Positions 33,601 to 39,376 of a stretch of DNA of 64,000 nucleotides are shown here, one piece after another. The DNA lies in NCBI RefSeq assembly GCF_003334405.1, contig NZ_QOWM01000001.1, one strand, 5' to 3'. The translations under genes were made by a program, and so were the position numbers. The notes beneath the pieces were generated by a model. That model was not told where the DNA came from. It made no database searches and saw nothing but the letters and a program-made list of their open reading frames with translations. Within the stretch, counting starts at the first letter, position 1; each line of letters opens with the position of its first letter. The DNA comes from Escherichia coli. Its GTDB lineage: Bacteria > Pseudomonadota > Gammaproteobacteria > Enterobacterales > Enterobacteriaceae.

Positions 33601-33630
33601 CGCCTATTAACCATTCTGGTTATTCTTCAT

Positions 33631-33671
33631 ACACCGCAGAGATGTTATATTGATGCGGTGTATTTGTTTTT
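33631..33671 (+). terminator. putative intrinsic terminator after apbC
   Basis: ACACCGCA ... TGCGGTGT stem-loop followed by T-rich run. Confidence 0.4.
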
Positions 33672-33862
33672 GCCGCATTAATGAACACTTATTTAATACT
33701 GCGAATATTCTGCGGACCTTCGTCCGAAACTCTACAAAGTCGATTGATCGTACAGGCAATGCTTCATTATCATCCTTCGTGGCTGTGTAGTGGATGTACA
33801 GCTATAGTTTGTTATGCACTCATTCTATCCAGGCATAACCTTTACTACAGGGATAACGTTCA

Positions 33863-34144
33863 ATGAATAAGTATTGGCTGTCAGGAATTATTTTTCTTGC
33901 CTATGGATTGGCTTCTCCCGCGTTCTCTTCAGAGACTGCAACATTAACCATCAATGGCAGAATTAGTTCCCCTACATGCAGTATGGATGTTGTTAATAAT
34001 CATCTTCAGCAACGTTGTGGGCAGTTGTTACAACGAGTTGAAACCAACTATCGTGCTTCTTCTACTGCAAAAGGCGTTACGACAGAAGTGGTAACTGTGG
34101 GTAATAACGACAAACGCAAAATCGTGTTAAATCGCTACGATTAA
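33863..34144 (+). CDS. yehE: small secreted protein YehE (DUF2574)
   Basis: 93 aa with signal peptide MNKYWLSGIIFLAYGLASPAFS; sits upstream of the fimbrial operon. Confidence 0.78.
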   Translation: MNKYWLSGIIFLAYGLASPAFSSETATLTINGRISSPTCSMDVVNNHLQQRCGQLLQRVETNYRASSTAKGVTTEVVTVGNNDKRKIVLNRYD

Positions 34145-34442
34145 TTTGCCAACACCGTTTTAAGCATTAAGCATATTTAAAAAGCCAAAATCATTCCTAT
34201 GAATGATTTTGGCTTTTTTATTCACCTAATGAATGTTATTTACGGTAATTTACGGTAATTAATCAGTTTCAAAAATGTTTGTTATAGCGAATTATTTGTT
34301 GTATTTATATCGCATTAGTTAATTTGTTTTAAATCAACAAAACAATATGTTTACATTGCGGCAACTTTTTTGATGTGAGAAATTTGTTTCCAAGAGATAC
34401 AGACTCTTAACAAAACAAAATAAACTTATTAAGGAATGCATC

Positions 34443-35762: not shown

Positions 35763-38243
35763 ATGTTGAGAATGACCCCACTTGCATCAGCAATCGTAGC
35801 GTTATTGCTCGGCATTGAAGCTTATGCAGCTGAAGAAACCTTTGATACCCATTTTATGATAGGTGGAATGAAAGACCAGCAGGTTGCAAATATTCGTCTT
35901 GATGATAATCAACCCTTGCCGGGGCAGTATGACATCGATATTTATGTCAATAAGCAATGGCGCGGGAAATATGAGATCATTGTTAAAGACAACCCGCAAG
36001 AAACATGTTTATCAAGAGAAGTTATCAAGCGGTTAGGCATTAATAGCGATAACTTCGCCAGTGGTAAGCAATGTTTAACATTTGAGCAACTTGTTCAGGG
36101 TGGGAGCTATAGCTGGGATATCGGGGTTTTTCGTCTCGATTTCAGTGTCCCGCAGGCTTGGGTGGAAGAACTGGAAAGTGGCTATGTTCCACCGGAAAAC
36201 TGGGAGCGGGGTATTAATGCGTTTTATACCTCTTATTATGTGAGTCAGTATTACAGCGACTATAAAGCGTCGGGTAATAACAAGAGTACATATGTACGTT
36301 TTAACAGCGGGTTAAATTTACTGGGGTGGCAACTGCATTCTGATGCCAGTTTCAGTAAAACAAATAACAATCCAGGGGTGTGGAAAAGCAATACCCTGTA
36401 TCTGGAACGTGGATTTGCCCAACTTCTCGGCACGCTTCGCGTGGGTGATATGTACACATCAAGCGATATTTTTGATTCTGTTCGCTTCAGCGGTGTGCGG
36501 TTGTTTCGTGATATGCAGATGTTGCCTAACTCGAAACAAAATTTTACGCCACGGGTGCAGGGGATTGCTCAGAGTAACGCGCTGGTAACTATTGAACAGA
36601 ATGGTTTTGTCGTTTATCAGAAAGAGGTTCCTCCTGGCCCGTTTGCGATTACAGATTTGCAGTTGGCCGGTGGTGGAGCAGATCTTGATGTCAGCGTGAA
36701 AGAGGCGGACGGCTCGGTTACCACCTATCTGGTACCTTATGCAGCGGTGCCAAATATGCTGCAACCCGGCGTATCGAAATATGATTTTGCGGCGGGTCGT
36801 AGCCATATTGAAGGGGCGAGCAAACAAAGTGATTTTGTCCAGGCGGGTTATCAGTATGGTTTTAATAATTTATTGACGCTGTATGGTGGCTCGATGGTCG
36901 CGAATAATTATTACGCGTTCACTTTGGGGACTGGCTGGAATACCCGCATTGGTGCCATTTCCGTCGATGCCACGAAGTCGCATAGTAAACAAGACAACGG
37001 CGATGTGTTTGACGGGCAAAGTTATCAAATTGCCTACAACAAATTTGTGAGCCAAACGTCGACGCGTTTTGGTCTGGCGGCCTGGCGTTATTTGTCGCGT
37101 GATTACCGGACATTTAACGATCACGTTTGGGCAAACAATAAAGATAATTATCGCCGTGATAAAAACGATATCTATGACATTGCCGATTATTACCAGAACG
37201 ATTTTGGCCGTAAAAATAGCTTTTCTGCCAATATGAGCCAGTCATTGCCAGAAGGCTGGGGGTCTGTGTCCTTAAGTACGTTATGGCGAGATTACTGGGG
37301 GCGTAGCGGCAGCAGTAAGGATTATCAGTTGAGTTATTCCAATAACTGGCGGCGGATAAGCTATACCCTCGCGGCAAGCCAGGCGTATGACGAGAATCAT
37401 CATGAAGAGAAACGTTTTAATATTTTTATATCGATTCCCTTTGATTGGGGTGATGACGTTACGACGCCTCGTCGGCAAATATATATGTCTAACTCAACGA
37501 CGTTTGATGATCAGGGGGTTGCCTCAAATAATACGGGATTATCAGGAACCGTTGGAAGCCGGGATCAGTTTAACTATGGGGTCAACCTGAGTTATCAGCA
37601 TCAGGAAAATGAAACGACAGCTGGGGCGAATTTGACCTGGAACGCGCCGGTTGCGACAGTGAATGGCAGTTATAGTCAGTCGAGTACTTATCGACAGGCT
37701 GGAGCCAGTGTTTCAGGGGGCATTGTCGCCTGGTCGGGTGGCGTTAATCTGGCGAACCGTCTTTCCGAAACGTTTGCTGTGATGAATGCGCCAGGAATTA
37801 AAGATGCTTATGTCAATGGGCAAAAATATCGCACAACAAACCGTAATGGAGTGGTGATATACGACGGAATGACACCTTATCGGGAAAATCACCTGATGCT
37901 GGATGTGTCGCAAAGCGATAGCGAAGCAGAATTACGTGGCAACCGGAAAATTGCCGCACCTTATCGCGGCGCGGTTGTACTGGTTAATTTTGATACCGAT
38001 CAGCGCAAGCCCTGGTTTATAAAAGCGTTAAGAGCGGATGGTCAACCATTAATGTTTGGTTATGAAGTCAATGATATCCATGGTCATAATATTGGCGTTG
38101 TCGGCCAGGGAAGCCAGTTATTTATTCGCACCAATGAAGTACCGCCATCGGTTAATGTGGCAATTGATAAGCAACAAGGACTTTCATGCACAATCACCTT
38201 CGGTAAAGAGATTGATGAAAGTAGAAATTATATTTGCCAGTAA
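35763..38243 (+). CDS. yehB: fimbrial outer-membrane usher
   Basis: ATG at 35763 with AGGAG SD gives 826 aa; track ORF starts at TTG 35748; usher family by size and operon position. Confidence 0.88.
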   Translation: MLRMTPLASAIVALLLGIEAYAAEETFDTHFMIGGMKDQQVANIRLDDNQPLPGQYDIDIYVNKQWRGKYEIIVKDNPQETCLSREVIKRLGINSDNFASGKQCLTFEQLVQGGSYSWDIGVFRLDFSVPQAWVEELESGYVPPENWERGINAFYTSYYVSQYYSDYKASGNNKSTYVRFNSGLNLLGWQLHSDASFSKTNNNPGVWKSNTLYLERGFAQLLGTLRVGDMYTSSDIFDSVRFSGVRLFRDMQMLPNSKQNFTPRVQGIAQSNALVTIEQNGFVVYQKEVPPGPFAITDLQLAGGGADLDVSVKEADGSVTTYLVPYAAVPNMLQPGVSKYDFAAGRSHIEGASKQSDFVQAGYQYGFNNLLTLYGGSMVANNYYAFTLGTGWNTRIGAISVDATKSHSKQDNGDVFDGQSYQIAYNKFVSQTSTRFGLAAWRYLSRDYRTFNDHVWANNKDNYRRDKNDIYDIADYYQNDFGRKNSFSANMSQSLPEGWGSVSLSTLWRDYWGRSGSSKDYQLSYSNNWRRISYTLAASQAYDENHHEEKRFNIFISIPFDWGDDVTTPRRQIYMSNSTTFDDQGVASNNTGLSGTVGSRDQFNYGVNLSYQHQENETTAGANLTWNAPVATVNGSYSQSSTYRQAGASVSGGIVAWSGGVNLANRLSETFAVMNAPGIKDAYVNGQKYRTTNRNGVVIYDGMTPYRENHLMLDVSQSDSEAELRGNRKIAAPYRGAVVLVNFDTDQRKPWFIKALRADGQPLMFGYEVNDIHGHNIGVVGQGSQLFIRTNEVPPSVNVAIDKQQGLSCTITFGKEIDESRNYICQ

Positions 38244-38258
38244 TAGTCAGGTGGTTCT

Positions 38259-39293
38259 ATGGAAATTCGCATAATGCAATTTATATTAATGATGATGGTT
38301 ATGCCTGTGAGCTATGCGGCATGTTATAGTGAGTTATCTGTTCAGCACAACTTGGTTGTTCAGGGGGATTTTGCACTTACTCAAACACAAATGGCGACAT
38401 ATGAGCATACTTTTAATGATTCGTCATGCGTGAGTACAAATACTATCACCCCTATGAGCCCGTCGGATATTATTGTTGGACTTTATAACGATACCATAAA
38501 ATTAAATTTACATTTTGAATGGACCAATAAAAACAACATCACGTTGTCAAATAATCAGACCAGTTTCACCAGTGGTTATTCAGTTACGGTGACACCTGCG
38601 GCCAGTAATGCAAAAGTGAATGTTTCTGCGGGGGGCGGCGGTTCAGTGATGATTAATGGTGTTGCGACATTATCCAGTGCTTCATCATCGACACGCGGGA
38701 GTGCCGCAGTACAATTTCTACTGTGTTTATTAGGTGGCAAGTCATGGGATGCATGTGTAAATAACTACAGAAATGCATTGGCACAAAATGCAGGTGTCTA
38801 TTCCTTTAATCTGACATTGTCATACAACCCGATAACCACAACCTGCAAACCGGACGATTTATTAATTACTTTAGACAGCATTCCCGTTTCACAATTACCA
38901 GCCACAGGTAACAAAGCAACAATAAATAGTAAACAAGGGGATATTATTCTGCGTTGTAAAAGTTTATTAGGTCAACAAAATCAAACATCACGGAAAATGC
39001 AGGTGTATTTATCAAGTTCTGACTTGTTAACCAACAGCAACACAATACTGAAAGGTGCGGAAGATAATGGCGTAGGATTTATTCTTGAAAGTAATGGTTC
39101 GCCAGTCACACTTTTAAATATCACTAACAGCAGTAAAGGATACACAAATTTAAAAGAAATTGCGGCAAAGTCAAAACTTACAGATACAACGGTTTCAATT
39201 CCGATAACAGCCAGTTACTACGTCTACGATACAAACAAAGTTAAATCTGGCGCACTGGAGGCAACCGCATTAATCAACGTGAAATACGACTAA
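38259..39293 (+). CDS. yehA: fimbrial adhesin-like protein
   Basis: 344 aa, signal peptide, last gene of chaperone-usher operon. Confidence 0.85.
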   Translation: MEIRIMQFILMMMVMPVSYAACYSELSVQHNLVVQGDFALTQTQMATYEHTFNDSSCVSTNTITPMSPSDIIVGLYNDTIKLNLHFEWTNKNNITLSNNQTSFTSGYSVTVTPAASNAKVNVSAGGGGSVMINGVATLSSASSSTRGSAAVQFLLCLLGGKSWDACVNNYRNALAQNAGVYSFNLTLSYNPITTTCKPDDLLITLDSIPVSQLPATGNKATINSKQGDIILRCKSLLGQQNQTSRKMQVYLSSSDLLTNSNTILKGAEDNGVGFILESNGSPVTLLNITNSSKGYTNLKEIAAKSKLTDTTVSIPITASYYVYDTNKVKSGALEATALINVKYD

Positions 39294-39349
39294 TAACAAG
39301 CAAGACGAGCAAGTGGCTAATAATAAAAAATAACAAGGTGTCTGCATTT

Positions 39350-39376
39350 CCCCCTCATGATGAGGGGGCTTTTTTT
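39350..39376 (+). terminator. intrinsic terminator after yehA (stem CCCCCTCA/TGAGGGGG plus T-run)
   Basis: Perfect 8-bp stem followed by CTTTTTTT; overlaps the rcnB stop codon on the opposite strand. Confidence 0.6.

Follow-up and report, generated by a model that had tools for sequence, protein, structure and literature searches.

In Escherichia coli K-12, yehDCBA is described as a cryptic but functional fimbrial operon that is repressed by H-NS (PMC5797941, citing Korea 2010), and that paper places it in two H-NS regulons defined by chromatin immunoprecipitation (ChIP). Overproduction of SlyA increased yehDCBA expression 3.6-fold (PMC5797941). The spacer between yehD and yehE is listed among the 'promoter islands' to which H-NS binds, and overlaps genomic islands predicted from base composition (PMC3661553), and a static, silenced protein-occupancy domain (EPOD) spans yehEDCBA (bioRxiv 10.1101/2024.06.20.599902). 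Without ArcA the operon was derepressed 5.4-fold, a ChIP peak was obtained in one replicate, and a binding site with four repeats was predicted (PMC3798270 and supplement). Published work also shows yehD to be raised by overproduction of BolA or CsiR. Here we analyse the corresponding locus in E. coli contig NZ_QOWM01000001.1 (GCF_003334405.1). The whole stretch of DNA analysed, called the window below, is 64,000 nt long; the interval under study, 33601-39376, carries yehE, yehDCBA and, in the leader before yehD, a perfectly repeated 10-mer.

The Yeh fimbriae were classified by Wurpel et al. as core-associated and were reported at the identical locus in Salmonella (stc) and Citrobacter (PMC3559732). 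The Salmonella stcABCD operon is a reported orthologue of Yeh, belonging to the gamma-4 usher clade and occupying an identical locus position (PMC3559732; PMC12778044). In the Hultgren nomenclature the major pilin is YehA or YhlA and the adhesin YehD, and the pilus is likewise placed in the gamma-4 clade with Salmonella Stc; the Yhl pilus is reported as almost confined to phylogroup E (PMC12778044).

Taken as a whole, our results very probably describe a silent, old and AT-rich Yeh operon with a three-part leader, in which the tandem 10-mer is a slippage product without a specific role and the leader and pilin gene lie in a recombinant block. The features of the locus are collected in Table 1.

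Table 1 Features of the yehE-yehDCBA locus in the window
Feature	Position	Strand	Description
yehE	33863..34144	+	small secreted DUF2574 protein, 93 amino acids (aa); open reading frame (ORF) and RefSeq; Pfam DUF2574, E 3e-44
Recombinant block, ~1.48 kb	33940..35423		yehE 3' end, leader, yehD, yehC 5' end; Sakai/E1V33 type in a K-12-like operon
Micro-duplication TTAAGCA x2	34160..34174		Tandem Repeats Finder; perfect 7-bp tandem just past the yehE stop codon
Intrinsic terminator hairpin after yehE	34179..34220	+	18-bp stem, CUAU loop, A-run before, T-run after
Distal leader	34221..34296		poorly conserved between alleles; holds the tandem 10-mer
Tandem 10-mer	34238..34260		ATTTACGGTA register; Tandem Repeats Finder period 10, 2.3 copies, 100% match
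Conserved core, yehD control region	34297..34425	+	91.5% identical to K-12, in a block otherwise 57-85%
Homologue of the ArcA~P site, four direct repeats	34325..34367	+	41/43 identical to the reverse complement of the predicted K-12 site (PMC3798270 supplement)
Shine-Dalgarno TAAGGA	34430-34435	+	upstream of the yehD ATG at 34443
yehD	34443..34985	+	major pilin, divergent allele; Pfam Fimbrial PF00419
GC-rich hairpin, yehD-yehC gap	35026..35049	+	dG -19.4 kcal/mol, z -5.3; no sense-strand T-run; flagged by a scan on the minus strand
yehC	35073..35747	+	periplasmic chaperone; PapD_N PF00345, E 9e-41; PapD_C PF02753, E 7e-8
yehB	35763..38243	+	outer-membrane usher, K-12-like; PapC_N PF13954; Usher PF00577, E 2e-194; PapC_C PF13953
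yehA	38259..39293	+	two-domain tip adhesin, K-12/UTI89 type; C-terminal Fimbrial domain PF00419
Terminator-like hairpin, operon end	39350..39368	+	8 pairs (6 GC), then T-run CTTTTTTT; common to convergent rcnB

A recombinant block in the Yeh operon

The operon in the window is a hybrid, in which a leader and pilin gene of the type found in Escherichia sp. E1V33 and O157:H7 are joined to an usher and adhesin of the K-12 type. Identity to K-12 is 97-100% in the flanks and over most of the operon, but only 70-87% from about 33950 to 35400. The block as a whole is about 79% identical to K-12 and 97-100% identical to both E1V33 and O157:H7 Sakai. Within E. coli the block falls into two classes, with approximately 370 genomes at 95% identity or more and approximately 5064 at about 78-79%.

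The mosaic structure was followed by scoring, along the window, the sites that distinguish K-12 from Sakai. The Sakai state was found at 298 of the 301 informative sites between 33940 and 35423, compared to the K-12 state at 31 of 33 sites between 33711 and 33938 and at all but about 30 of some 790 sites between 35424 and 39594. The breakpoints are therefore located at 33938/33940, within yehE, and at 35411-35424, within yehC, and both of these genes are chimeric: yehE has 77 nt of K-12-like sequence at its 5' end and 205 nt of O157/E1V33-like sequence at its 3' end, and yehC has 351 nt of O157/E1V33-like sequence at its 5' end followed by 324 nt of K-12-like sequence. Forty complete genomes contain the hybrid operon, with at least 99% identity along all 5.8 kb. 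Further mosaicism was observed upstream, where mrp (32658-33665) is Sakai-like at 29 consecutive informative sites and the mrp-yehE spacer with the yehE 5' end (33711-33938) is K-12-like.

Homologous recombination with an operon of the O157:H7 or cryptic-Escherichia type was probably the source of the leader, of the pilin gene and of the gene ends next to them. When Escherichia whittamii was compared to the window, the divergence was similar in the block and in its flanks, which suggests that this block type is native to non-coli clades and would have entered E. coli from there. The encoded YehD is 100% identical to that of E1V33 at the amino acid level and 85.6% identical to that of K-12. With synonymous divergence (dS) of about 1.2 and a ratio of non-synonymous to synonymous divergence (dN/dS) of 0.07 relative to K-12, the pilin alleles are old lineages under purifying selection, neither decaying nor under rapid positive selection. 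In some E. coli genomes, O157-like ones included, the block was matched at two separate places, and 41 of the matches were on plasmids; this suggests paralogous Yeh-like pilin and chaperone loci elsewhere in some E. coli.

Compared to the K-12 operon (b2112-b2108), the window has the same chromosomal position, gene order and gene lengths, a core leader with the ArcA site, a similarly AT-rich leader (24.3% GC in K-12), and YehB and YehA proteins that are 98.2 and 98.5% identical, respectively. It differs from K-12 in the block, including YehE, which is only 74% identical at the amino acid level (dN/dS 0.32), and in the tandem, K-12 having the imperfect TACATAAATC TACATTAATT in place of the perfect repeat. 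The Sakai operon (ECs2914-2918) shows the opposite pattern. Its leader, yehD, yehE 3' end and yehC 5' end are 97-100% identical to the window, the two-copy tandem included, while its yehB is 78-93% and its yehA about 50% identical at the DNA level, and its adhesin matches a different solved structure (8v9v) from that matched by the adhesin of the window (9n4g).

Sakai and E1V33 are 98-100% identical from upstream of yehE through most of yehB, which is the extent of the E1V33 locus, compared to 87-98% in the mrp/metG flank. This suggests exchange between the two lineages, probably of the 'Yhl' type. The operon at the yeh locus of Sakai is probably the 'Yhl' pilus of PMC12778044. The 'O157:H7 marker' ORF Z3276 has been described as 1035 bp long (PMC6060243). 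As this is the length of yehA, Z3276 would be the Sakai adhesin gene at the yehA position; for the same reason it was ruled out that Z3276 is a divergent yehD.

The leader of yehD

The earlier note treated the 300 bp before yehD as one AT-rich leader. The yehE-yehD spacer is indeed AT-rich, with 26.8% GC over 298 bp (the lowest 0.1% of 298-bp windows), but it is not a single unit. Alignment of nine leaders, together with identity counts against K-12, separated it into a terminator, a fast-evolving distal segment and a conserved core (Table 1), preceded by a poorly conserved start at 34145-34178. The TTAAGCA duplication located in this start is missing, as a 7-bp gap, from K-12, Sakai, E1V33 and the other species. 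Being specific to the window, it represents, besides the 10-mer, a second recent duplication by slippage in this spacer.

The terminator hairpin after yehE has a free energy of -22.4 kcal/mol (z -9.0), and none of 200 shuffled sequences was equally stable. It is kept in eight Escherichia sequences, with four base pairs preserved by changes on both sides of the stem, and the A-run and T-run that border it would possibly make it bidirectional. If the hairpin acts as a terminator, yehE and yehDCBA would be separate transcription units. Since yehE ends in a strong terminator of its own, transcription of yehDCBA probably starts in the leader.

The distal leader is 56.6% identical to K-12, compared to 46.7% at the four-fold degenerate sites of yehD, and with a value so close to that of four-fold sites it is nearly unconstrained. 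The core, on the other hand, is largely kept even in a relative with 63% YehD identity, and presumably holds the promoter and the 5' untranslated region (UTR). A sigma-70 consensus scan of the leader gave no strong promoter and manual inspection revealed weak -35/-10 pairs only, which fits a weak, silenced promoter. The predicted RNA fold of the 5' UTR was non-significant (z -0.8). Binding of ArcA to the tandem was considered and ruled out, as the published site maps within the core, 65 bp downstream of the tandem.

The tandem 10-mer

The 10-mer TACGGTAATT at 34241-34250 is repeated exactly at 34251-34260, as the earlier note had read it and as Tandem Repeats Finder also reports, and each unit contains the 9-bp palindrome TTACGGTAA. 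It is the sole perfect tandem with a period of at least 10 in the window. Such a tandem also appeared in 6.5% of first-order Markov simulations of the 64-kb window; taken alone, the repeat exceeds chance expectation only marginally. No enrichment of the 10-mer was seen in the rest of the window (seven matches with at most one mismatch, two of them the tandem itself, compared to 3.4 expected). The RNA fold at the tandem region was non-significant (z -1.7) and no Rfam family was found there in a scan of 33000-40000.

The comparison of alleles was more informative. In the leader alignment K-12 has two imperfect units at the homologous position, as given above, and Escherichia albertii has the two units TACAACAATT TACGGTAATT. 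The alleles E69, MOD1-EC7003 and SCPM-O-B-8794 have more degenerate pairs, E. whittamii has a single TACGGTAATT, and E1V33 has the same perfect pair as the window. Copy number was then searched in 5426 complete E. coli genomes with synthetic leader queries of one, two and three copies. All three queries agreed that the window leader type occurs in 371 of the genomes, mostly O157:H7. Eight genomes matched the three-copy query end to end, on at least two leader backgrounds: 17MR471 with a window-type leader and seven with O157-type leaders, three of the latter from one farm. ATCC 43889 has one copy. The remaining approximately 358 genomes would have two copies, judging from identity bands, and each of the listed two-copy genomes spans 121 bp. 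Altogether nine of about 367 genomes, or about 2%, deviate from two copies.

Because whole units are gained and lost between genomes, although rarely, the tandem is a genuine slippage repeat, a micro-VNTR (variable number of tandem repeats). The simplest history that accounts for the alleles has three steps: the ancestor would have had two degenerate 10-bp units, one of which would have been lost in the lineage of E. whittamii and the E1V33 type, and the surviving unit would then have been duplicated again to give two perfect copies, which still occasionally gain or lose one. That the tandem is a mere coincidence in AT-rich DNA, without mutational or biological meaning, would agree with its frequency in simulations and with the lack of enrichment of the 10-mer, but is already contradicted by the exact whole-unit changes in related genomes and is the least probable of the explanations considered.

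Possible functions of the tandem

Most likely the tandem only adds AT-rich DNA for coating by H-NS, with no function that depends on its particular sequence, and would then be neutral. It lies in a nearly neutral segment, its half-sites are not conserved, alleles with a single unit exist, and it is separate from the core; these observations argue against a sequence-specific role without any of them excluding one. Two kinds of specific role were weighed.

The first is that of a contingency or rheostat element, in which 10-bp units would keep the helical phase but alter distance or curvature and in this way heritably tune silencing by H-NS. Simple-sequence-repeat phase variation of fimbriae is familiar from hifA and hifB of Haemophilus influenzae, which have TA repeats between their promoters. 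Repeats of this type have short units in many copies, separate the -35 element from the -10 element and have high mutation rates. Like hif, the locus in the window has a tandem repeat upstream of a pilin gene, and its copy number varies between isolates. As expected of a phase-variable promoter, the copy number differs between close relatives (1, 2 or 3), with expansions on at least two leader backgrounds and one contraction, the period equals one helical turn, and the region is within DNA known to be bound by H-NS in K-12. Unlike hif, the unit is 10 bp long, is present in only one to three copies, and varies in about 2% of genomes, and a 10-mer repeated two or three times is a long way from being hypermutable. 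The repeat is located outside the conserved core, which presumably holds the promoter, and the allele that about 93% of E. coli carry lacks the perfect tandem. We therefore consider a rheostat improbable.

The second is that of a binding site for a response regulator, with direct repeats at a spacing of one helical turn (TTTAC-N5 half-sites of the OmpR type, or similar ones) acting in distal control of yehD. The two perfect 10-bp direct repeats, and the TTTAC / TCTAC pair at the homologous place in K-12 and E. albertii, would fit such a site, and yehD is listed as up-regulated in a Salmonella ompR deletion strain (PMC13413605). Against it, the segment has diverged almost as fast as synonymous sites, as opposed to the conservation expected of an operator. 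Both half-sites are degenerate in E69, MOD1-EC7003 and SCPM-O-B-8794, and only one unit is present in E. whittamii and ATCC 43889. The literature searched contained no report of OmpR binding at yehD, and the only mapped direct-repeat site is the downstream one for ArcA. A response-regulator site is thus quite unlikely, slightly more so than a rheostat.

Either role could be combined with the recombination described above. The repeat would then be a functional module of the O157/E1V33-type pilin promoter, either as a pair of OmpR-family half-sites or as a phase-keeping spacer, the copy number (1-3) of which would heritably tune silencing by H-NS. We hold this to be about as doubtful as the response-regulator site. 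If true, the recombinant block would have given a Yeh operon of the K-12 type both a new pilin and a new regulatory input.

Several points weigh against our interpretation of a silent operon with a functionless slippage repeat. The experimental data on H-NS, ArcA and SlyA all come from the K-12 allele, and its divergence from the allele of the window is about 43% in the distal leader and 8.5% in the core. A period of 10 bp, equal to one helical turn, and a layout of two units are retained in several diverged alleles, and this could be due to weak constraint instead of common descent. The unit TTTACGGTAA has a likeness to the TTTAC-type 10-bp half-sites of OmpR-family regulators. Finally, we infer the position of the tandem relative to the yehD promoter, and likewise the direction of the recombination, into or out of E. 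coli.

Genes of the operon

Several E. coli chromosomes in RefSeq contain the interval with 100% identity, and in them apbC (mrp), a DUF2574 protein, a fimbrial protein, yehC, yehB, yehA and rcnB are annotated. The gene order is mrp/apbC - yehE - yehD - yehC - yehB - yehA - rcnB, with rcnB convergent, and matches that of K-12 MG1655 in RefSeq. The genes thus have the position of the Yeh locus between mrp/apbC and rcnB, and the names given to them in the earlier note, yehE and yehDCBA, agree with the annotation of both the identical DNA and K-12. Of these, yehDCBA is the gamma-4 chaperone-usher pilus operon Yeh. The earlier note had called this a cryptic chaperone-usher operon; its identity follows from RefSeq, Pfam and NCBIfam, and its cryptic status from the published work on K-12.

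The usher YehB scored 1754 bits on the model NF011763, well over the cutoff of 933. YehC is a PapD-like chaperone according to Pfam; on the StcB model it scored 341 bits, under the cutoff of 500 for that model. The operon encodes both a pilin (YehD) and a two-domain adhesin (YehA), and residues 21-193 of the latter match PDB entries 9n4g, 9n4h and 9n4i (364 bits), receptor-binding domains deposited as 'YehD protein'. YehD reached only 106 bits on the NCBIfam YehD equivalog, the cutoff of which is 136. This fits a divergent pilin allele, and the assignment of the operon to Yeh is kept because the usher and adhesin models were passed. No NCBIfam model matched YehE. As a consequence, where a genome has this allele the two RefSeq names are no more specific than 'fimbrial protein' and 'DUF2574 family protein'; in the other genomes they are yehD and yehE. 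The possibility that YehE is a decayed pilin was ruled out, as neither BLASTP against YehD (E 0.61) nor the Pfam cross-hit (E 0.22) was significant.

Two further hairpins were found in the operon (Table 1). The K-12 sequence aligned with the one in the yehD-yehC gap seems, by eye, able to pair. Hairpins at the pilin/chaperone gap of other fimbrial operons are thought to lift pilin output over that of the assembly genes. By analogy, this hairpin is likely an mRNA stabiliser or attenuator that would favour the pilin over the assembly proteins. An Rfam scan of 33000-40000 at a permissive threshold gave nothing but a sub-threshold match to the small RNA Hrs1 at 39331-39376 on the minus strand (23.6 bits, gathering score 56.4, E 0.34). 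It coincides with the yehA/rcnB terminator hairpin, most likely represents no more than this terminator, and was taken as a chance match.

Base composition, age and silencing

The AT-richness relative to the neighbours, which had earlier been judged by eye, is borne out by sliding-window calculation. The interval has 41.3% GC compared to 50.9% in the remaining window, the lowest value obtained when 5776-bp windows were moved along the 64 kb in steps of 50 bp; its GC content is as low as expected of a xenogeneic island. The values for yehE, yehD, yehC and yehA are 40.8, 38.7, 39.9 and 38.8%, respectively, with yehB only mildly AT-rich at 45.6%. The neighbours mrp, metG, rcnB and rcnA have 54.1, 52.8, 49.6 and 51.2%, respectively. 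Other patches of low GC (40-46% per kb) are present at 18001-20000, 24700-26000, 28001-29000 and 56500-58000, and are shorter and milder than the yeh interval.

The earlier note had considered the composition typical of an H-NS-silenced, horizontally acquired operon. The low GC and the published silencing by H-NS of the K-12 allele support this description, but recent acquisition does not hold. The Yeh operon is present in 5424 of the 5426 complete E. coli genomes, without the patchy distribution of a recent arrival, it adjoins mrp/apbC in E. albertii, E. whittamii and other non-coli Escherichia, and it has been reported as ancestral to Escherichia and Salmonella (PMC3559732). As the locus is core in Escherichia and is reported from Salmonella and Citrobacter, its low GC is a long-kept property and no sign of recent acquisition. 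'Horizontally acquired' can only mean an ancient event; the locus is old and core, and what moved recently is an allele, the recombinant block, not the locus.

In K-12, H-NS-type nucleoid proteins keep the operon silent, ArcA represses it further, and H-NS antagonists such as SlyA can switch it on. Occupancy by H-NS and derepression in its absence are reported for the K-12 allele only, to which the leader/yehD allele of the window is about 79% identical. The same silencing may be expected of the allele in the window.

Neighbouring sequences

Outside the interval, rcnA shows a 24-base length difference from K-12 at 40200-40400 (281 aa in the ORF call, 274 aa in the K-12 annotation). Presumably a stretch assumed to be histidine-rich varies in length here. 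A perfect 9-bp tandem, GTGATGATG x2, is located at 40385-40402, near this difference. At 29400-30000, beyond metG, the alignment with K-12 breaks down (about 50% identity, many gaps). A large DUF4132 protein is annotated in this region in RefSeq; K-12 has yehF there and Sakai a MolR pseudogene.

Significance

The literature already covers the Yeh operon with its AT-rich composition and silencing, and the reading as an H-NS-silenced cryptic operon is the textbook and published description, so that the finding as first noted adds little. New here are the recombinant structure and the copy-number variants, both of a kind well known for fimbrial loci. The curated family thresholds miss the divergent YehD and YehE, which results in inconsistent names in genome annotations. 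The regulation data from K-12 may not transfer to the approximately 7% of complete E. coli genomes that have the other leader and pilin type, O157:H7 included. About 40 complete genomes pair a pilin of the O157/E1V33 type with an adhesin of the K-12/UTI89 type, the receptor-binding domain of which has been reported to contribute to adherence to pectin. Such hybrid operons matter for typing schemes, serology and assays that use parts of the locus as lineage markers.

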